Part shown: positions 14,834 to 48,680 of the stretch, in pieces
Layout: each line of letters begins with the position of its first letter
How positions within the stretch are numbered: position 1 is the first letter of the stretch
Origin: Singulisphaera sp. GP187
GTDB taxonomy: Bacteria > Planctomycetota > GCA-002687715
Direction: 5' to 3'
DNA: 64,000 bases
Assembly: GCA_945907755.1 (NCBI GenBank)
Contig: CAMDTN010000007.1
Location: 856-64,855 of the forward strand
The notes under the pieces: model-generated
Seen by the model: only the letters and a program-made list of their open reading frames with translations
Told to the model about the DNA's origin: nothing
Database searches by the model: none
Position numbers and translations under genes: made by a program

Positions 14834-16741
14834 ATGAAGTTTTCGAAGCGCGCGGTTTGCGCAGTGTTTGCCTTTGTTTGCAGCGCATCATTCTGTGGTG
14901 CTCAGATCTGGGTGCAGCAAGCGGGCGCCGTGCCGGGGCCCGTGACCATGACCGAAGGCTGCATCGCCGCAGACTTGGATGGGGACGGCGACAAGGATGT
15001 GCTTTTTGCTAACGGCTATGTGCTGAGCAGCGCTGGCAGCGCCGCGGTGTTGCCCACACTGTTGATCAACAAGTTCAACCTTGCGTTGGGTTTGGTGGAT
15101 GAAAGCGCTGCGCGCTTGCCGGCAACGCTGCTGAAGGCGACTCAAGTGATTGCGGTGGACATTGAGCGCGATGGAGATCTGGACCTTGTCATCACCTGCA
15201 ACGGACCCACCCAGCAGAGGCTTTATCTGAACAACGGCGTAGGCGTGTTCACTGATGTTTCGGTGGCGCGCTTGGGTGTGTTCAGCGCGGTGTGCAACTG
15301 CGCAGTGGCCGGCGATGTGGAACAAGACGGCGACCTCGACCTGTTCTTCAACGACGGCGCCACCAATGGGCAGTTGAAACTGTTCCTGAACAACGGGCTT
15401 GGCTTCTTCACCAACGTCACCGCGACACATGTTGCCGTTGCGCCCAAGACCAATCAGCAAGATGTGGTCCTTTGCGACATCGACAACGACTGGGACTTAG
15501 ATGTGGTGAACACCGGCAAGAGCGCCGGGCAACAGATTTTCTTCAACGACGGCACCGGGCACTTCACTGTGAACAGCGCATTGCTGCCGGCGGGAACCAC
15601 GTTGACTTACGAAACCGATGTGTGCGACTTGGATTCCGACGGCGACATGGACATGTGCTTTCTGTCCACTAGCGGCTTCACCGATGCCGTGTTGCGCAAC
15701 AATCTCATTCCCAGTGGCACTTTGAGTTTTACTGCCCAATCAACTTTCTTCACCGGCAGCAACGGTTTCGACGACAACGAGTTTGTTTACGCCGATTCCG
15801 ACAACGATGGCGACTTGGATGTTGTCATTGGTTCGCTGACGGCTACGCAAGAGCGTCTGTATGTGAACAACGGCGCCTTCAGTTTCGCGAACAGCACCAC
15901 GGGATTCTCAATGGTTTCTGATTCCACTTTGGATGTGGCCTGCGCAGACCTGAATAATGACGGCAAGCTAGACATGGTCACGGCGCAGGGAGAATCCGGC
16001 AATTTCTTGAACAGGCTGTATTTGGGCACAGTGCTCGACACACAGCCAGCGCGAGCGCTGCGGCTCCGCGGACCCGAGGGCGCACGGGCGGCGGGGGATT
16101 CGCGCCGAGTCCAAGTGGTCTTGCATGATTCGGCAGTTGACGACGGTGAAACCTCCGTGCGTTTGGTAAATCTCGTCGGCACAGTCACGCACCGCAGCGG
16201 CGTGGCGAGCTTCTCGGTGCCCATGACCATGATGGGTGGATTTCTGTGGAACGGCGAAGTGCCAATTCCAGGTGGCGTGGTGTTGATGGGCGCGAGTGTG
16301 AGTTGGTCGGTCAGCGTCACGGACCATGCTGGCAATGTGCTGGTCACTCCTGCGCGCAATTTCCATGTCTGCGGCGCAGAGGCTTACGGGCCAGGCGGCG
16401 TCGTTGGTGGTGTGAACGCGTTGAGCCTGAATGGCAGCGGCGCAACGGCGGGGCAGCAATTGATGCTGGCTTGGACTGGATTCCCACTGGACGCAGGGCT
16501 GCTCGTGCTGGCCGGGGAGCGCGGCGCACTGCCCTACTTCACCGGAACGATTCTTGTGGATCCTGCAACGATCATCGACTACTTCCCAGCTCTGTTCGAC
16601 GGCGCTGGTGTCGGCGGTTTGTCAGTGGGGCTGCCGCCGGGCCCTGCGCTCGCAGGCTTGCGCTTGGACTTGCAAGTGCTGCAAGTGTCCGCGGGCTCTG
16701 TGTTCCTCAGCAACGGCCTCGAACTCGTCATCTGTCCTTGA
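14834..16741 (+). CDS. Secreted FG-GAP/VCBS-repeat (integrin-alpha-like beta-propeller) protein with conserved C-terminal extension
   Basis: Signal peptide MKFSKRAVCAVFAFVCSASFCGAQ after GGAG. Multiple DxDGDGDxD FG-GAP repeats (DLDGDGDKDVLF, DIERDGDLDLVI, DVEQDGDLDLFF…). C-terminus shares a motif with three other secreted proteins in the window. Confidence 0.8.
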   Translation: MKFSKRAVCAVFAFVCSASFCGAQIWVQQAGAVPGPVTMTEGCIAADLDGDGDKDVLFANGYVLSSAGSAAVLPTLLINKFNLALGLVDESAARLPATLLKATQVIAVDIERDGDLDLVITCNGPTQQRLYLNNGVGVFTDVSVARLGVFSAVCNCAVAGDVEQDGDLDLFFNDGATNGQLKLFLNNGLGFFTNVTATHVAVAPKTNQQDVVLCDIDNDWDLDVVNTGKSAGQQIFFNDGTGHFTVNSALLPAGTTLTYETDVCDLDSDGDMDMCFLSTSGFTDAVLRNNLIPSGTLSFTAQSTFFTGSNGFDDNEFVYADSDNDGDLDVVIGSLTATQERLYVNNGAFSFANSTTGFSMVSDSTLDVACADLNNDGKLDMVTAQGESGNFLNRLYLGTVLDTQPARALRLRGPEGARAAGDSRRVQVVLHDSAVDDGETSVRLVNLVGTVTHRSGVASFSVPMTMMGGFLWNGEVPIPGGVVLMGASVSWSVSVTDHAGNVLVTPARNFHVCGAEAYGPGGVVGGVNALSLNGSGATAGQQLMLAWTGFPLDAGLLVLAGERGALPYFTGTILVDPATIIDYFPALFDGAGVGGLSVGLPPGPALAGLRLDLQVLQVSAGSVFLSNGLELVICP

Positions 16742-24333: not shown

Positions 24334-24978
24334 ATGAGCTTATTCGACTGGTTACGTCGGCCTGAAACCACAAGAGCCCCGCGTGCTGCGCGCCCGGCTT
24401 TGGATGCTGCGCTGGTCGATGGCATTCTCACGCGGGTGCGTGCGGCGCCTGCAGGGCTACGCGTGCTGGAGCTCGAGTGTGGCGTTGGCGTGCTCAGCCT
24501 GCGCATGGCCCATGCTGCGCCAGGGTGCAGCGTGCTGGGGCTGGACACAGCGTCAGATGCGGTGCGCAGTGCCAGCAGCGCGGCGCGCGCGGCGGGGCTG
24601 GAGTCGCGCGTGAGCTTCAGTGTGTGCGACCTGCGGATTCTGTCAGTGGCCGATGCTTGCTTCGATCTTGCTGTGGGGGTGGGGGTGCTTAGCGAGAGTG
24701 CTGCACCCGCATCTACGCTGCGCGAAATCCGCCGCGCGCTGGCACCCGGCGGTATGGCACTGCTCTACGAACCCCTTGCGCTGGAAGAGCCAGCAGCGAA
24801 TGCAGCCGGCGGTATGCATCATTTGCGCGGCGCATCAATGAGTGGCGCAGCGTTGAGCGCGCTCATTGCAGCGTCGCCCTTCGCCAACGCAGCGCGTCTT
24901 ACGGCACCGGAATCTCGGGGGCCGGGCGCCTACGCACAGTTAGTCCTGCTGCACGCGCCTCATGTCAAGCCGCATTGA
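24334..24978 (+). CDS. Class I SAM-dependent methyltransferase
   Basis: Motif I VLELECGVGVLSL; acidic-loop and motif II-like segments. 214 aa. Confidence 0.7.
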   Translation: MSLFDWLRRPETTRAPRAARPALDAALVDGILTRVRAAPAGLRVLELECGVGVLSLRMAHAAPGCSVLGLDTASDAVRSASSAARAAGLESRVSFSVCDLRILSVADACFDLAVGVGVLSESAAPASTLREIRRALAPGGMALLYEPLALEEPAANAAGGMHHLRGASMSGAALSALIAASPFANAARLTAPESRGPGAYAQLVLLHAPHVKPH

Positions 24979-25276
24979 GCGCGAACGGCCTTGATCGCCC
25001 TGTCGACCGGTCGGATGCACTCCAACGGACCGCTCCGCCTCACCAAGTCAGCGCTCCGCTTCCGCCAACGTTGGGCATGGGCATGTGGCCGAGCGCAGAG
25101 GTCACCGGCGGAGTGTGCTCCATGGGCGCGGCAGCCGGTCGTCTTCGCCCGACCGGCCGAGCGCCCATGGGCAACACGGAGCCACGCCTGCGAGCGCAAT
25201 GCAAGACCGACCGTGCGCTGCAGAGGCGGAGTGTGTCCGATGGGCGCGGCAGCCGACCGTCTTCGCTCGACCGGGC

Positions 25277-25341
25277 GAGAGGAAAGAAAAAGACCCCCGC
25301 GTGAGCGAGGGTCTTTAGCTTTCACGAAGTCGGGGCGAGAG
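25277..25341. repeat. 65-bp direct repeat, copy A (identical to 25460–25524); carries a copy of the last 11 nt of tRNA-Pro plus a terminator hairpin
   Basis: Exact sequence identity by eye: gagaggaaagaaaaagacccccgcgtgagcgagggtctttagctttcacgaagtcggggcgagag. Confidence 0.85.
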
Positions 25342-25459
25342 CCCACCGCAGTAGCGGTGGGGAGATTTGACGCCGTGCGTAGCGCGGCGCAGATCCTCTG
25401 CGGAGGAGGCCACGCCTCGGGGCCGAGGCCGCAGGGTGCGCAGCACCCAACGACCCGAT

Positions 25460-25587
<128 letters not shown>

Positions 25588-25812
25588 ATTGCTTCAAGGA
25601 TCGGCTACAGCAAGCTGCAGCACGAGCCCCAAGCGGGGCCATTGTTACGAATATGCCCCTCAGCGGTCAAGCAGCGAGCTACGTATGGCTCATCATCGCC
25701 CCATCGACCGGTGAGAACATGGTTGAGGCGAGACAATATGCCTATTTTTCCCGGGGGGGGCCTCTGCGGTAAAGTTCTTCGTGTCACCGTTCGAATCGTG
25801 AGGAGACTTTCC

Positions 25813-27531
25813 ATGTCACTTGCCCGAATTCCTTGTAATGCGAGGTGCGCGGTTGCGCCCACCTTTGCACGCCGCCTTTGGTTCGTTTGCCTGCTAGCGC
25901 TCATGGTGCTGGTCGGCGCTGCGTTACTGCCAGGTCAAACGCTGATGCGCATCAGCGAGGGCACCACTACGGCTTTCGGTCTCGGCTGGTCATCTGCCAG
26001 AGCGGGAGACCTCGACGGCGACGGCATCACTGAGGTGTTGGTAGGTGCCAACGACCCCGCCTTAGGTGCAGGCACCGTGCGCGTGATTTCTGTAGCCACC
26101 GGCGTTGTGTTGCGCACCCACGTGGGCGAAGTCAATGGCCACCAGTTTGGCTTTGACGTAGCCGGCGGCTTCGATGCGAACCTCGACGGCGTCAACGATG
26201 TCTTGGTCGGTGCACCTGGCTTCGATGTGGGTTCATCTTTCGACAATCGTGGGCGGGCTTATGTCTACTCCGGTGCCACGGGCACGCTGCTGTATTCCGT
26301 CACCGGCGAGGCCTTCGCGGAGAACTGCGGTTTCTCTGTTGCATGGTTGGGCGACATCAATGGCGACCTGAGAGCGGATTTCGCGGTGGGCTCGTCCGGT
26401 GCTAGCAGCATGACTGGTCGCGTGCGCGTGTTCAGCGGCCTCGACGGCAGCTTGATGCTGACTTTGGGTGGGCAGGCTGTCGGCGATCGTTTCGGCGCGG
26501 CAGTGGCCTATGCGGGTGACATGAACGCTGACGGCACCCCAGATTTATTGGTCGGCGCGCCATATCAAGCCATCAACGGCATCGCAGGGCGTTCGTACAT
26601 CTACGCCATGCCTACCGGAGCGTTGCTGCAAACATTTTTCGGGACGCAATCTGCGGAGCACCACGGCTGGGCGCTTTGCAGCGTGCCGGATTTGACTGGC
26701 GACGGCGTGCGCGATGTGGTGGTGGGTGCGCCCGATTACGACGCGGTGACGATCACTGACGCTGGACGGGCTCGCGCGTTCAACAGTGCCACGGGTGTGG
26801 CGCTGTGGGATTTCGTGGGGCCGCTGGTCCATATGAAAACCGGCATCGACTTGGATGCCATTCCAGATTCCGACGCTGACGGCATCGGCGACTTGATAAT
26901 CGGCCTCCCATACATCCCACCATGAAGTGGCATCTACTACGGTCGCGTGTCGACCGTGAGCGGTGCGAATGGTGCTGCCATCCGCACGATCACCACTACT
27001 GGCTACGAGAACCTCTTCGGGCGCAGCGTCTGCGGCCTCGGAGATTGGGACAACGACGGCATCGGCGACTTTGCTGTGGGCTGCCCCAACGAGGACACCA
27101 TTGGCGCGCTGAATTGCGGGCGTTCGCTGGTTTACGGCGGCGGCGTGCGCGACACCAGCACATTGCAATTGTTCGGAACGATGTCCGTGAGCAACCCCAA
27201 CTCGCCTTACATTCGCGTGCTCGGGACTCCAGGCACGCCTCCGGTGGTGTTGGGGGATCCGATCCCCGGCCCCACGCCCATTCCGCCCTTTGGTTACTCG
27301 GGCGTCGGTTTCAGCCCATGGATGGTGGCGATGAACAATCCCGTCGGGTTCCTGTGGCCAGCCTTCGGCGGCAACATCGACTCACAAGGATTGTTGCAGA
27401 TCGGTCCGTTTCCGCTGTCGCCCAACGTCATCGGCCTCACTTTGTTCGTGCAGTCCTTCAACGTCACTCCACTGGCGCCGAACGGAGTGTTCCAGCGCAC
27501 CAACACGCTGGCGCTCACCGTTACGCCCTGA
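25813..27531 (+). pseudogene. FG-GAP repeat secreted protein interrupted by an in-frame TGA at 26923–26925 (nonsense mutation or sequencing error)
   Basis: AGGAG Shine-Dalgarno before ATG 25813. Signal anchor RLWFVCLLALMVLVGAALLP. Repeats DLDGDGITEVLVGA / DMNADGTPDLLVGAPY… The stop falls inside a repeat unit: …DSDADGIGDLIIGLPYIPP*SGIYYGRVSTVSGANG… continues in the same frame through DWDNDGIGDFAVGCP to stop at 27531. C-terminal conserved extension present. Confidence 0.6.
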
Positions 27532-27542
27532 GGACCCAAACC

Positions 27543-29006
27543 TTGCGCACTTGCATCGCGATCGCGTTGTTACTGGGCGGAATCGCCGCCCAGCAGCCCA
27601 TGAATCAGTACACCTCGAATACCTATTGGTTGGGGGGTGCCGCTGATCCGCGAGTGCTGATGCTGGGGCCGGGGGGGCGCATCTTTACAGGCTGCGGTGA
27701 CGGGTCTGTGCGCATCTTGGAAGACAACGACAACAATGGCGTTGTGGACAATGTGATCAACTTTGTGTTCGGTGCGTGGAGTTGCCATGGCCTCGCTTGG
27801 AAGCCCAACGGGGCGACGGGCTATGACCTCTATGTATCGCACCTCACGGCGCCATCGGGCGGCACCGGCACGATCACGTGTTTCACCGACCTCACTGGCG
27901 ATGACATCTTTGATGTGGTCACGACAGTGGTGCTGACATTGCCCTCCGGGGCGCACCAAGTGAACAACATCAAGTTGGATGCAACGGGCCAGTGGCTGTA
28001 CATCGCGCAAGGCGCGACGGCGAACACTTCCGCCGGCGGCGGCGCCATGGTTGCGCGCGTGGCCTCCAATGCAGTGAATGTGCTTTGGGGCTCTCCGCAA
28101 GTCATCGTCGTGGGCACGGGGTTGCGCAATCCTTGGGGCATCGAATTCCATCCGTCTGGCGAGCTCTTCGCCACCGACAACGGGCGCGACGACTTGGGCG
28201 CCACAGATCCACCTGATGAATTCAACCGCGTGGTGATGGGGCAAGACTATGGTTTCCCCACTGTCAGCGGCATGCCGCCCGTGGGCAACCCAACGACCGC
28301 ACCCATCGGATTATTCGAGTCTCATGCTTCGGCCAATGGATTTGCATTCGACAACGGTTCGATGCTCACGGGCTTCGTGAACCAAGTGTTTGTCGCGGAA
28401 TGGGGCAATTGGAACGGCATCACGCCAACGCCAGTGGGACAAAAGATTGTTCAAGGCAACTTGCACCAACGCACCAATGGTTCGTGGGTGCTGAACTCGT
28501 GGGATTTCTTGGCCAATTGTGGGCATCCGCTGGATGTGGAAATCGGCGCGCTAGGCGAGCTGTTCTTCACCGTGCAGTGGGGAGTGCCCAACTGGCCTGA
28601 AGGCGTGTATCGCGTTGTGCCCACCCACGGCATCTCCGTGAAACTGAGCGGCGTGCCCGAGCTTGGCAACATCATCAATGTGACCGTGCGTTGCCCCGGC
28701 CTTCCTGGGCACCTCAGCAAAGTGGCTGCATCTGCAGGCACCGGGCCTCTGCCCACTGCGCTCGGAGGCCTCGGCCTCAGTTGGGATTGGATCTTCGACA
28801 TTTCGCTCACGCCGAACCCATATTTGTCCTTTGCGCCAGCGGGGCTGTTGAACGCCCAAGGCTTGTCCAGCGGACCGGATCATGTGTACATCCCTGTGCT
28901 GCCGGTCCTGTCGGGCTTCACCCTCTACATCGCCGCTGCGACCTTCGATCCATTCACCCTAGTGCCTTCAGCCGTGTCACCCACTGCGAGGATTCTCATT
29001 CTGTGA
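27543..29006 (+). CDS. Secreted soluble quinoprotein glucose/sorbosone-dehydrogenase-like beta-propeller protein with conserved C-terminal extension
   Basis: TTG start preceded by GAGGA (8-nt spacer). Signal peptide (M)RTCIAIALLLGGIAAQQ. GSDH-family motif GLRNPWGIEFHPSGELFATDNGRD. C-terminal ~110-aa extension ending …ARILIL. Confidence 0.7.
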   Translation: MRTCIAIALLLGGIAAQQPMNQYTSNTYWLGGAADPRVLMLGPGGRIFTGCGDGSVRILEDNDNNGVVDNVINFVFGAWSCHGLAWKPNGATGYDLYVSHLTAPSGGTGTITCFTDLTGDDIFDVVTTVVLTLPSGAHQVNNIKLDATGQWLYIAQGATANTSAGGGAMVARVASNAVNVLWGSPQVIVVGTGLRNPWGIEFHPSGELFATDNGRDDLGATDPPDEFNRVVMGQDYGFPTVSGMPPVGNPTTAPIGLFESHASANGFAFDNGSMLTGFVNQVFVAEWGNWNGITPTPVGQKIVQGNLHQRTNGSWVLNSWDFLANCGHPLDVEIGALGELFFTVQWGVPNWPEGVYRVVPTHGISVKLSGVPELGNIINVTVRCPGLPGHLSKVAASAGTGPLPTALGGLGLSWDWIFDISLTPNPYLSFAPAGLLNAQGLSSGPDHVYIPVLPVLSGFTLYIAAATFDPFTLVPSAVSPTARILIL

Positions 29007-45099: not shown

Positions 45100-45280
45100 G
45101 GGAACAGTTCCTTTCGCCCAAAGCCGCCTCACCGCGCGGCTTACGCCCAACCAAGAGAGCGGGGTAGGAGGAGCTTATCGGCTGGTCGCGCACTAATCCC
45201 ATTGCGGCGGGCGGATCTTGTGGCGGGCGACTTAACGGACGGCAAGGTCTGCTTGGTAGTTGGCTTGGCAGTCTCGGCTT

Positions 45281-46414
45281 ATGAAGCCTTTTGCACTGTC
45301 GGCGATGCTCGTCTTGGCTGCTGCGCTGTTGCCAGCTCAGTGGTCTGCCAACCCCGCTACCAACCTTGCGGTCGCCAACCGCACTGGCGATCAGGCAGTG
45401 CCCAAGCTGGCGGCCACCCTCGATGGTGGCGCTTATGTGGCTTGGTTCGATCACGCAGGCGCGAACTACGATGTGACATTGCAGCGCTTGGATGCCAATG
45501 GCCTACGAGGTGTGGCCTCACAACGGCTTGCTCATCAGCGGCACTGCCCAAGCGACTTCGCTGATGGATTGGGATTTGATCACTGACAGCGCTGGCAACG
45601 CGGTGTTGTGCTTCACCGACATACGCGCTGGCGGCGACTACGACATTTACGCCTACAGGATCAGTCCGGCGGGCGCGTTTTTGTGGGGCACTAATGGAGT
45701 AGCGCTGTCGAATGACGGCAATTTCGAGGCGAACTCCGTGGTGGCCGAGATGACCGACGGCACCTTCGCTTTTGCGTGGATGCGTAGCGTCACCGGTGCG
45801 GCCGGGCGTCTTGTCGTGCAGAAACTGGACACTCTCGGAACGCCGCTCTGGGGCACCTCGGCCCTCGCCGTCTACGACGCTGCCTCATTGCCCATCGCGC
45901 ACAAAGCGCAACTGCTCGCTGACGGTGCTGGCGGTGCGTTCAACGCATGGCATGTCAGCGTTGGCAGCTTCTTCCAAGGCCGCGTGCAGCATGTGAATTC
46001 AGCGGGCGTTGAGGTGCTTGCGCACGGCGGCATCGAAGTCTCGCTGGAAGCAAACCGCTCCGATCTCGACCCGTGCATGGTGTCACTCGCGGGCAGCGCG
46101 GTGGTGGCCACCGACGGCACCGCGATCCTTGCGTGGAACGATGCGCGCACCGACATCAACGATGTGTACACGCAGAATGTCGAGCCTGACGGCAGCATGG
46201 GCGTGCCACGGGCTCCGGCATGAGCCTTGGTTCGCTGCCGCTGTTGCCTGCGCCGCCGTGGATTGGGCCGGGTGCGCCAGCAGGGTTCGTGTTGTTGGTG
46301 CCCAACCAGCCTGCGTTGGTCAGCGCGAATCTGTTCTTGCAGGGCGCGCTGGTGGATGCAGTCACGGGCCGCATCGGGCTGACGAATGCACTGCATATTC
46401 GCATCGGGCCCTGA
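45281..46414 (+). pseudogene. Secreted repeat/beta-propeller protein with conserved C-terminal extension, disrupted by two compensating frameshifts (near 45502 and 46190–46223)
   Basis: Signal peptide MKPFALSAMLVLAAALLPAQ in frame 2 (to 45586). Repeat-bearing middle in frame 0 (45492–46223). C-terminal conserved extension in frame 2 (46190–46414). Repeat pattern G.Y.V.W…R…G.YD…QR…G continues across the junction. Confidence 0.55.
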
Positions 46415-46458: not shown

Positions 46459-46531
46459 GGGCGCTTAGCTCAGCGGTTAGAGCTCCTCGCTTACACCGAG
46501 GAGGTCGGGGGTTCGAATCCCTCAGCGCCCA
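46459..46531 (+). tRNA. tRNA-Val (anticodon TAC)
   Basis: GGGCGCTTAGCTCAGCGGTTAGAGCTCCTCGCTTACACCGAGGAGGTCGGGGGTTCGAATCCCTCAGCGCCCA. 7-bp acceptor stem; anticodon loop CTTACAC; T-loop GGTTCGAATCC. CCA not encoded. Confidence 0.9.
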
Positions 46532-46558: not shown

Positions 46559-48541
46559 CTAGTCCTTCGCGGCGCCTGCCTTCGCGTTCTTATTCGGCGC
46601 CGGCGGTTTGAGGCCCGGCTGCCCCGGCTTGCTGATGTTGTTCTCGCGGTTCATGTCGGGCCAGCAGTGGGCTGGGTCCAACTCGACGGACTCCACTGCA
46701 GCCTCCGGCACGCCCAAGTCCAGCGACACTCTGCGCCCCCAAGCGAAAGCCTCGGCTGGAATGCACCCAGCGCGAGTTGAACCGTCTTTCAGTTTCGCGA
46801 GCCACGGCACAGGACTGACGAAGCGCCCTTGCAACACCACTTGCAGGCGCGCTGCTTTTTCACCGCCCAATCCGCCAGCCGCCATGTCAGGTTTTCCGGC
46901 GCCGTAGATCCAACTGTTCCAGAACCAGCCGAGGTCTTTGCCCGCTGCGTTCTCCATGGTGCGCATGAAATCTGCCGGCGTCGGCGACTTGAAAGCCCAG
47001 CGCGCGACATACTCGCGGAACGCCGCATCGAAACGCTCTGCGCCCAACACTTGTTCACGCAGCATGCGCATCATCCAAGCGGGCTTGTCGTAACCAAGAA
47101 AACCCATCGAGCCCGGCGGCATGCGATCTGGCGCCGTGCTCATGGGGGCACCAATACGCTGCCAGCTCTTGCTCCAATCATCCAAGTCAAACCACGCGCC
47201 CGGCGCGTTGAAGCGTTCCACGATCGCGTAGTAATCAACGAAAGTGTTGAAGCCCTCATCCATCCACGCGTGGCGGCGCTCGTCGGTGTTCACCACCATG
47301 GGAAACCAGTTGTGCCCGATCTCGTGCGCAATCAACGCGAACAGCCCGTAGCTGTCGTTGCAACGCCCGTTGAAAATAATCATCGGATATTCCATGCCGC
47401 CGCCGCCGTCGCCGTAGGCATTCACATTGGATGCTTGCGGGTAGGGGTAAGCGAACCACTTGCCGCTGAAATGCTCGATGGATTGGCGCAGGTCCTGCGT
47501 GCCTTCATTCCACAGTGGCAACGCGGAGCGTGGGTAATACGACTGACACAACACGCCGGCGGCTGTGGAACATGCATCCCAAACCAACGCTGCGGACGAG
47601 CACCACGCAAAGGTGCGCACGCGCTGCGCACGGAACTCCCATGTGAGCGGGCCATCGCCTTCGGGCCTGCCCGCGCCGCGAGTGACATCGTCGGCGGAGC
47701 GCACCATCACGGTGTCGCGAGTTTTCATGGCGGCATCGAGCTGTTCCCGTTGGTGCCCAGTCAACACTTGGCGCGGGTTGCGCAGCGTGCCGCTGGCTGC
47801 AACCACATGGTTGCGTGGCACCGTCAAGGCCACATCAAAATCGCCATACTCGGTGTAGAACTCGCCGGGTCCGATGTAGGGCAGCGTGTTCCAACCGTGC
47901 ACATCATCGAACTTGGCCACCGCTGGAAACCACTGAGCCAGCGCGAACATCGGCCCGTCAAGCGTGTTGGTACGGCCCATGCGCAGCGAGTTGTCCTTCG
48001 GCACTTCGAAGCTCCACGCGAGCTCAAGTCGGACCGTGCCGCCATCCGCCGCCACAGGCGCAGGCAGCTCCACGCGCATCAGCGTGTCGTAGCCCGCCCA
48101 CTTCAGGTCGCGCCCGCGGCAACGCACGCTTTGCATGCGAACACCGTCAGTTGTGGCATCGATGCGATCGGCGGAAGCACCACCCGCAGCAGCCACAGCG
48201 CGCGCAAGACTGTCCGCGCGAAAAACATTTTGCTCGACATGGAACCACAGGTACGGCAAGGCCTCGGGGGAATTGTTGGTGTATTCAAGCGTGAGCGTCG
48301 CGCTCACTTCACCCGCTTCGGCATCCAGCGTGGCGCTGATCTCGCAGTCGGCTTGCTGTTGCCAATAATCTGGCCCCGGTGCCCCAGTCATGGTGCGTAA
48401 GCGGTCGGGCGTGCGCATGGGCGGCGCTGCGAAAAGTGCGGTCCATTCCGCCTCCGTTTGGGGCACTTCCGTTTTTGCCCGCTGGGCGAAAGCGACTTGC
48501 GGCAACACCACCACCAACGACAGCAAGAAGAACCAGCGCAT
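46559..48541 (-). CDS. Secreted M1-family zinc aminopeptidase (aminopeptidase N-like)
   Basis: GGAGG Shine-Dalgarno before ATG 48541. Signal peptide MRWFFLLSLVVVLPQVAFAQ. HEIGHNWF…(18)…E zinc motif and GAMEN-like region. Confidence 0.9.
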   Translation of the reverse strand: MRWFFLLSLVVVLPQVAFAQRAKTEVPQTEAEWTALFAAPPMRTPDRLRTMTGAPGPDYWQQQADCEISATLDAEAGEVSATLTLEYTNNSPEALPYLWFHVEQNVFRADSLARAVAAAGGASADRIDATTDGVRMQSVRCRGRDLKWAGYDTLMRVELPAPVAADGGTVRLELAWSFEVPKDNSLRMGRTNTLDGPMFALAQWFPAVAKFDDVHGWNTLPYIGPGEFYTEYGDFDVALTVPRNHVVAASGTLRNPRQVLTGHQREQLDAAMKTRDTVMVRSADDVTRGAGRPEGDGPLTWEFRAQRVRTFAWCSSAALVWDACSTAAGVLCQSYYPRSALPLWNEGTQDLRQSIEHFSGKWFAYPYPQASNVNAYGDGGGGMEYPMIIFNGRCNDSYGLFALIAHEIGHNWFPMVVNTDERRHAWMDEGFNTFVDYYAIVERFNAPGAWFDLDDWSKSWQRIGAPMSTAPDRMPPGSMGFLGYDKPAWMMRMLREQVLGAERFDAAFREYVARWAFKSPTPADFMRTMENAAGKDLGWFWNSWIYGAGKPDMAAGGLGGEKAARLQVVLQGRFVSPVPWLAKLKDGSTRAGCIPAEAFAWGRRVSLDLGVPEAAVESVELDPAHCWPDMNRENNISKPGQPGLKPPAPNKNAKAGAAKD

Positions 48542-48680
48542 GGATGCACCTCCGAGGCGGACAGATTGCCCGCCAATGCCGCGCGCGTCCACCCCCACCC
48601 GCGTAGGGGGCGGGCGCACAGAATCCAGCATCTGGGCACTGCTTGATGCACCGATTCGCAAGCGGAGATAGGCTCAGATC

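Follow-up and report, generated by a model that had tools for sequence, protein, structure and literature searches.

Four genes in a 64-kb stretch of contig CAMDTN010000007.1 (the whole stretch that was analysed, referred to here as the window) encode proteins that end in homologous copies of a single autonomous domain, ~100-120 residues in length. The domain is complete in three of the proteins (P1, P2 and P3) and is present as a remnant in the fourth (P4). As a sequence family the domain is new, though its fold class is a known one, and it behaves like known C-terminal cargo domains. The source of the window is an uncultured member of Planctomycetota, and the G+C content of the window is 62%. 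P1 (14834-16741, + strand) and P2 (25813-27531, +) are FG-GAP repeat proteins, P3 (27543-29006, +) is a GSDH-like (glucose/sorbosone dehydrogenase-type) beta-propeller and P4 (45260-46414, +) is a repeat protein distributed over three frames. An original prediction made on this DNA had proposed that four unrelated secreted proteins share a C-terminal tail. All four tail sequences quoted there were found in place: P1 ends in ...GLRLDLQVLQVSAGSVFLSNGLELVICP (at 16738), P2 in ...GLTLFVQSFNVTPLAPNGVFQRTNTLALTVTP (at 27528), P3 in ...GFTLYIAAATFDPFTLVPSAVSPTARILIL (at 29003) and P4, in a frame that differs from that of the upstream open reading frame (ORF), in ...NLFLQGALVDAVTGRIGLTNALHIRIGP (at 46411). 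The passengers are indeed diverse, but P1 and P2, both being FG-GAP proteins, are not unrelated to each other.

The relationship between the tails becomes visible in profile comparisons. Pairwise BLASTP among the window tails was not significant (E 3.7, 0.011 and 9.2) and a word-indexed homology search with a single tail gave no match, while the same search with a 37-sequence profile returned only 11 short nameless metagenome proteins. When a profile of the four tails was compared with 1.84 billion representative proteins, 35 matches were obtained at E<=1e-3, all of which extend to the C-terminus of the respective protein (101-832 residues). When 923 six-frame segments were searched with a hidden Markov model (HMM) of non-window members, the four window tails and no others were retrieved (P3 5e-21, P2 1.9e-20, P1 1.2e-8, P4 1.2e-5), the next best segment having a value of 0.85. 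This test is partly circular, because the members of the HMM came from a profile that contained the window tails, and therefore two independent tests were built. An HMM of 54 metagenome copies, taken from a scan that was seeded with the sub-family alignment A4 and contained no window sequence, matched P3 (1e-11) and P2 (1.5e-3); P1 and P4 were not matched. In the other test the P1 orthologue group, collected via its FG-GAP part, was aligned with the metagenome family by hhalign, which gave a probability of 90.6% (E 1.3e-6) over 106 columns, end to end. By profile search, HMM and hhalign the shared C-terminal element is thus homologous, as had been proposed. A weak antisense match at locus L001 (16228-17115, E 2e-5), opposite a GC-rich gene, is probably spurious.

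In alignments (A2 and A8) and in AlphaFold2 models of the P1 and P3 copies the domain is an all-beta sandwich, and its predicted fold is of the immunoglobulin (Ig)-like/macroglobulin-like class. The P1 model (predicted local distance difference test, pLDDT, 87.3; predicted template modelling score, pTM, 0.78) covers 16379-16738 and has ten strands, the first at residue 14, and the P3 model reached a pLDDT of 92.3 and a pTM of 0.83. As expected for this fold class, the domain is a two-sheet antiparallel sandwich that can be superposed on known members. Foldseek against the PDB returned generic Ig-like or macroglobulin-like neighbours only (template modelling score ~0.5), and a PDB sequence search with the domain gave no match. 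Macroglobulin (MG), Ig-like and fibronectin type III (FN3)-like sandwiches, such as those of complement C3/C5, bacterial alpha-2-macroglobulin and the C-terminal domain of dextranase, share 4-16% identity with the domain. These domains are internal and serially arranged in large proteins, whereas the domain described here is terminal and single, and the likeness lies at the fold level only, because no functional site is shared.

Near-invariant positions of the family are the Gly of ...LDxxG..., the Pro of ...IPNxP... and the Gly of ...LxG.... A (S/T)N-x-x-x-x-I motif is located 3-11 residues before the C-terminal end. The last residues of the tails are of beta-strand type (...LELVICP, ...LALTVTP, ...ARILIL). 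The previously proposed terminal motif comprises only the last two strands of the ~110-residue Ig-like domain; it is present as such, but the fixed final Pro does not hold, since the last residue is K in 27, P in 21, Q in 11 and L in 8 of 97 members, and F or Y in 4. Likewise, the shared element is C-terminal as had been described, but its unit is the complete domain of ~100-120 residues and not a short motif.

The copy in P1 is of the short form (16418-16738, +; AlphaFold model, HMM and hhalign) and reaches the last codon. P1 itself is supported by its ORF, its translation and a Pfam FG-GAP_3 match (6e-33), and starts with the Sec signal peptide MKFSKRAVCAVFAFVCSASFCGA|Q (...FCGA|Q). The exact protein was found in four independent assemblies (NCBI GCA_947490305.1 and three ENA metagenome assemblies), and relatives with 78, 72 and 41% identity are present in metagenome-assembled genomes (MAGs) labelled Planctomycetota or Planctomycetia. 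Over the last 48 residues P1 agrees with its 78% orthologue at ~90% of the positions, which shows that the C-terminal half of the domain is conserved. The short form contains one Cys near its start (VCGAEAYG; CG.E.YG; window 16385-16390) and one in the terminal ...VICP (ICP(K); 16730-16738). The sites are conserved with the L001, L002 and L003 orthologues, and because both terminal Cys residues are kept in five orthologues, the ends of the P1-type domain may be linked to each other by a disulfide. In the related MAG L003 the P1 orthologue is tandem-duplicated (L003:7688-9913 and L003:9922-12060) and the domain is kept in both copies. The domains of P2 (27205-27528, +; HMMs) and P3 (28650-29003, +; AlphaFold model and HMMs), the latter ending in ...ARILIL, are of the long form. 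The nearest representative of the P2 domain in the four-tail profile search is P0001 (E 4.9e-25).

Position and cargo of the family were analyzed in 52 loci, ~40 of them from one sample (Ga0180434), that were obtained by a metagenome scan with the sub-family alignment A4. A six-frame HMM search of these loci revealed 68 domain copies, 66 of which have a visible stop. Sixty-four of the 66 end 0-9 residues before the stop, and 59 of them only 0-2 residues before it. No protein from these loci has more than one copy. A Sec signal peptide is present in nearly all complete family members. At L126, L116, L120 and L113 two or three tagged genes stand in tandem, and in some uncultured bacteria the family has undergone strong expansion. 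Among the passengers are FG-GAP, SBBP/DUF7948, Kelch, PD40, arylsulfotransferase, CCP_MauG+YVTN (di-haem peroxidase), TIG/Ig, LamG, beta-helix, Peptidase_C25, Peptidase_C1 with a lectin, and CBM96/disaggregatase. Within one metagenome, copies that are 43-64% identical to one reference are attached to FG-GAP, C25, C1, SBBP, Kelch and CBM96 passengers. Since similar copies occur on six unrelated passenger types, the domain has been shuffled and is conserved independently of its passenger. All taxonomically assignable copies are from Planctomycetota (the window lineage, P0059 and P0016), the remainder being unlabelled metagenome proteins; cluster look-ups returned a single taxonomic label, again Planctomycetota (P0016).

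Neither in the four window proteins nor in ten family members did any Pfam-A or NCBIfam model match the domain region at E<=1, and the same searches, which included type IX secretion system (T9SS), PEP-CTERM and LPXTG models, bear out the earlier statement that the tail does not match such known signals. Among 38 metagenome members, too, no family covers the domain region, the one element common to them being without a model, and no published description of the family was found in the literature. The signals of the exosortase, sortase and rhombosortase pathways (PEP-CTERM, LPXTG and GlyGly-CTERM) are also shared C-terminal elements on unrelated exported proteins of one genome. They are, however, ~25-35 residues long and consist of a motif, a transmembrane helix and a basic tail, whereas the element described here is a globular domain of ~110 residues. 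The absence of a transmembrane helix with a basic tail had been noted from the sequence and was confirmed by the beta-strand character of the tail ends. The PEP-CTERM and LPXTG types are excluded because both the hydrophobic helix and the basic tail are absent; a signal of this group, GlyGly-CTERM included, was rejected as there is no hydrophobic helix, no Arg/Lys cluster and no NCBIfam match. An outer-membrane beta-barrel or autotransporter C-terminus, which has an aromatic end and >=12 strands, was rejected as well: the domain is a small sandwich, and the terminal aromatic residue whose absence had been predicted is indeed lacking in all but the 4 of 97 members with a final F or Y.

The best-described C-terminal sorting domain is the C-terminal domain (CTD) of T9SS cargo (PMC4804311, PMC11285876). 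The T9SS type A CTD of Bacteroidota is also a folded Ig-like sandwich that closes proteins exported by Sec, is present in single copy with its final strand near the C-terminus, and is likewise carried by many paralogues in a genome and by very diverse passengers, among them FG-GAP proteins and C25 peptidases. The latter belong to the classical cargo of the T9SS. On the Bacteroidota and Ignavibacteria FG-GAP homologues of P1 the T9SS CTD occupies the same position as the domain does in P1, so that the tag varies by phylum.

We favour, at even chances, the reading that the domain may be a module that targets or anchors Sec-exported proteins from their C-terminus, and that it would work like the T9SS CTD while standing outside that family. 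It is favoured because a folded sandwich is placed terminally, in single copy, on proteins with signal peptides and unrelated cargoes, with expansion of paralogues and in the position of the T9SS CTD. After Sec export and cleavage of the signal peptide, a common periplasmic partner would recognise the folded C-terminal sandwich and take the passenger through the outer membrane, or place it on that membrane or on the cell surface. The recognition surface could be formed by the conserved last strands (...IPNxPxLxG-x-L-x-x-Q/A-F...(S/T)N-x-x-x-x-I, whose end lies 0-2 residues from the C-terminus), and the domain might afterwards either be cleaved off or be retained as an anchor. A more doubtful step, put forward only tentatively, is that the domain marks the cargo of an as yet undescribed pathway, in Planctomycetota and perhaps other uncultured lineages, for secretion through the outer membrane or attachment to the surface; such a pathway would be functionally analogous to the T9SS CTD system but of independent evolutionary origin. 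Of the dedicated pathway that had been predicted, the sorting-like behaviour (64/66 copies terminal, single copy, signal peptides) was found, but no machinery.

Several observations weigh against a targeting role or favour an ordinary accessory Ig-like module, involved in structure, adhesion, oligomerisation or glycan binding, that was placed last by chance and serves no sorting pathway. Two members have a non-terminal domain: in L118:1450-2976 it directly follows the signal peptide and precedes MAM-like repeats, and in L106:1-1497 it is internal and followed by a region that, read by eye, we take to be formylglycine-generating-enzyme-like. The fold therefore has no strict need for a free C-terminus. 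The window copies are very divergent from each other, which fits one shared receptor less well, and only structural Gly and Pro positions are near-invariant across the whole family. There is no obvious flexible linker between passenger and domain in P3 and in the SBBP proteins. No candidate translocon or processing enzyme is present among the genes of the window, and no partner, translocon, peptidase or transpeptidase recurs beside family members. Pfam analysis of 36 neighbours of tagged genes gave no recurring family and no taxon-diagnostic domain; two apparently recurrent neighbour clusters were artefacts, consisting of antisense or out-of-frame ORFs that overlap the domain. Adhesion Ig modules are, however, typically arranged in tandem and variably placed, whereas this domain is single and is terminal in 64/66 metagenome copies and 35/35 profile matches. 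Furthermore, the domain is conserved regardless of very different passengers in one sample, and no conserved aromatic or polar patch of the carbohydrate-binding type is evident in the alignments. We regard an ordinary module as the main rival, less likely than not but with a considerable share of the likelihood.

A C-terminal pro-domain or intramolecular chaperone, removed after export like the pre-peptidase C-terminal (PPC) domains, would agree with the strict C-terminal position, the beta-sandwich fold and the proteases among the passengers (Peptidase_C25, Peptidase_C1). It makes little sense for the majority of passengers, which are non-enzymatic repeats or propellers (FG-GAP, SBBP, Kelch), and no Pfam match to PPC or related families was obtained at E<=1, so that we regard it as improbable. 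A highly divergent T9SS CTD in hosts that possess a T9SS is less probable still. Neither TIGR04183/PF18962 nor any other T9SS model matched the four tails or the ten members at E<=1, while the C-termini of 14 of 15 Bacteroidota/Ignavibacteria FG-GAP proteins used as controls were recognised by TIGR04183. Alignment of A2 (37 domains) with A3 (15 true T9SS CTDs) by hhalign gave a probability of 0.08% over 8 columns; there is no detectable sequence or profile similarity and the T9SS motifs do not occur in the domain. The T9SS CTD is a 7-strand (3+4) sandwich of ~65-90 residues (PMC11285876) vs 100-120 residues and about 10 predicted strands (AlphaFold) in the domain. The T9SS is described for Bacteroidota only (PMC5445135), whereas all members of known taxonomy are from Planctomycetota. 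Genes for T9SS components (SprA/Sov, PorV, PorU, PorK-N) were found neither in the window nor in the short loci. We know of no T9SS in Planctomycetota. The tails could finally be similar by composition or be the last blade of each propeller: they are Gly/Pro/Leu-rich, their pairwise BLASTP comparisons are not significant and most window passengers are propellers. The library-wide profile matches and the clean separation of the four tails from 919 other segments rule out a composition artefact, and the separate AlphaFold sandwiches together with non-propeller passengers (peptidases C25 and C1, beta-helix, CBM96, lectin) rule out a last blade, which leaves this explanation with next to no probability. 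Novelty of the tail had been made dependent on its being neither a last propeller blade nor a T9SS CTD; both possibilities were examined and, in view of the models, the passengers and hhalign, neither held.

A second finding concerns the gene of P2, for which a frameshift had been assumed. Its two ORFs (25528-26925 and 26947-27531) lie in one shared frame and are split only by the TGA at 26923-26925. P2 starts with ATG, preceded by GAGGAG, and has a signal peptide (...LLPG|QTL). A longer form with a TTG start was ruled out because tRNA-Pro occupies 25512-25587 (-); this tRNA-Pro(GGG) gene lies directly upstream of P2. Pfam recognised FG-GAP repeats before the TGA (1.4e-25) and one further FG-GAP repeat after it, and termination at the TGA would deprive P2 of its last FG-GAP propeller blades and the C-terminal domain. 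The TGA, in the context YIPP-TGA-SG, is invariant across six lineages (the window, L001, L138, L139, L140 and L142; TGA positions L001:21486, L138:5977, L139:96, L140:2977 and L142:947), some of which have <50% protein identity to the window P2. In the five relatives the TGA is located 21 nt before the called start of an ORF of 191-194 residues. Changes within these 21 nt are mainly in-frame and synonymous or conservative in the four closer lineages. No P2 homologue with a sense codon at the TGA position was recovered.

In the six-lineage alignment (A10) the UGA is followed by a hairpin, and both together form a candidate recoding site for selenocysteine or read-through (26923-26958, +). The distance from the UGA is 15 nt for the start of its 5-bp core (GGYCG-CGUGU-CGRYC), 20 nt for that of the CGUGU loop and 12 nt for that of the counted 8-bp helix, in which 3 more bp lie below the core. 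The helix is 89.6% paired, vs 10-48% in slid controls, and shows compensatory changes at two pairs. The observed score was reached by 5/500 shuffles, and the consensus fold adds a lower stem. The geometry of UGA and hairpin fits a bacterial element of the selenocysteine insertion sequence (SECIS) type, and P2 exhibits both features by which bacterial selenoproteins are recognised, a UGA conserved among orthologues and a stem-loop shortly downstream. Rfam gave no match to a SECIS family at the site, z-scores from single-sequence folding were not significant there (energies no better than those of shuffles), and no selenocysteine tRNA gene is present in the window. Complete selenocysteine machinery is present in some Planctomycetes (PMC4807772). 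Selenocysteine insertion or programmed read-through appears more likely to us than a true stop. If confirmed, the site would represent a new exported selenoprotein or read-through family, with a UGA and a hairpin in a secreted FG-GAP protein.

P3 (Pfam GSDH 1e-8) starts with TTG 12 nt past the stop of P2 and has the signal peptide ...GGIAA|QQP; this start was set from the sequence and from orthologues of 489-491 residues encoded directly downstream of P2 orthologues. In L138, L140 and L142, the relatives with complete downstream gene calls, a P3 orthologue directly follows the P2 orthologue, and in L139 the downstream gene is cut by the contig end and has no Pfam call. P2 and P3 are adjacent in all diverged relatives with a long enough locus (L138, L140, L141 and L142). 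The order S-adenosylmethionine (SAM)-methyltransferase, P2 (FG-GAP with TGA) and P3 (GSDH-like) is found in the window (24334-29006), L138 and L140. As the gap between P2 and P3 is only 8-24 nt in these loci, the arrangement suggests an operon of two tagged proteins.

P4 had been described as a frameshifted protein with the tail. The broken frames were found and comprise at least three ORFs (45260-45586, 45492-46223 and 46190-46414), but the full domain was not: the remnant at 46289-46411 (+) holds only the last ~40-55 residues, i.e. the final strands, and its match to the HMM of non-window members is confined to profile positions 77-117 of 119. The first half of the domain is absent upstream of the remnant in every frame. 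P4 has a signal peptide (...LLPA|QWS), and no Pfam match was obtained for its passenger. At the last break, stop and start overlap as ATGA, and a 64-residue ORF follows that contains nothing of the domain but its final strands. An exact look-up of the fragments as delimited gave no record. The region was reached via the neighbouring UDP-glucose dehydrogenase gene, and in three other assemblies the split into 241 and 64 residues was called as well. The split is therefore real and not an assembly error, and P4 is probably a pseudogene or decaying gene. A tRNA-Val(TAC) gene (46459-46531, +) is located directly downstream of the remnant.

The M1 peptidase encoded at 46559-48661 (-) has a signal peptide and lacks the C-terminal sandwich domain; only some of the exported proteins, therefore, are marked by the domain. 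In each of the five signal peptides of the window that are of the signal-peptidase-I type, the predicted +1 site is occupied by Gln (CGA|Q, LPG|Q, IAA|Q, LPA|Q and AFA|Q, at 14834-14905, 25813-25940, 27543-27605, 45260-45340 and 48540-48661 (-)). Gln at +1 is also found in many members of the domain family elsewhere (L086-L131) and is not confined to proteins bearing the domain. The pattern resembles the 'Q-rule' of Bacteroidetes signal peptides, which was described as specific for that group (PMC5837995). The remaining genes of the window have housekeeping functions (MetH, ABC-F, SNF2 helicase, UDP-glucose dehydrogenase, MBOAT/AlgX and others), and tblastn against plasmids gave no match.

To our knowledge, the movement of proteins across or onto the outer membrane of Planctomycetota is poorly understood, and we know of no cargo tag in this phylum that is comparable to the T9SS CTD. 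Should the domain have no more than the role of a structural Ig-like module, what is left is a new domain family of the Pfam type. A model of the domain would annotate a recurrent 'hypothetical' C-terminus in metagenomes. As a C-terminal domain common to FG-GAP, SBBP, Kelch, protease and lectin proteins it defines a candidate surface and secreted proteome that can be listed with an HMM, and profiling its occurrence across phylogenies might expose the machinery.

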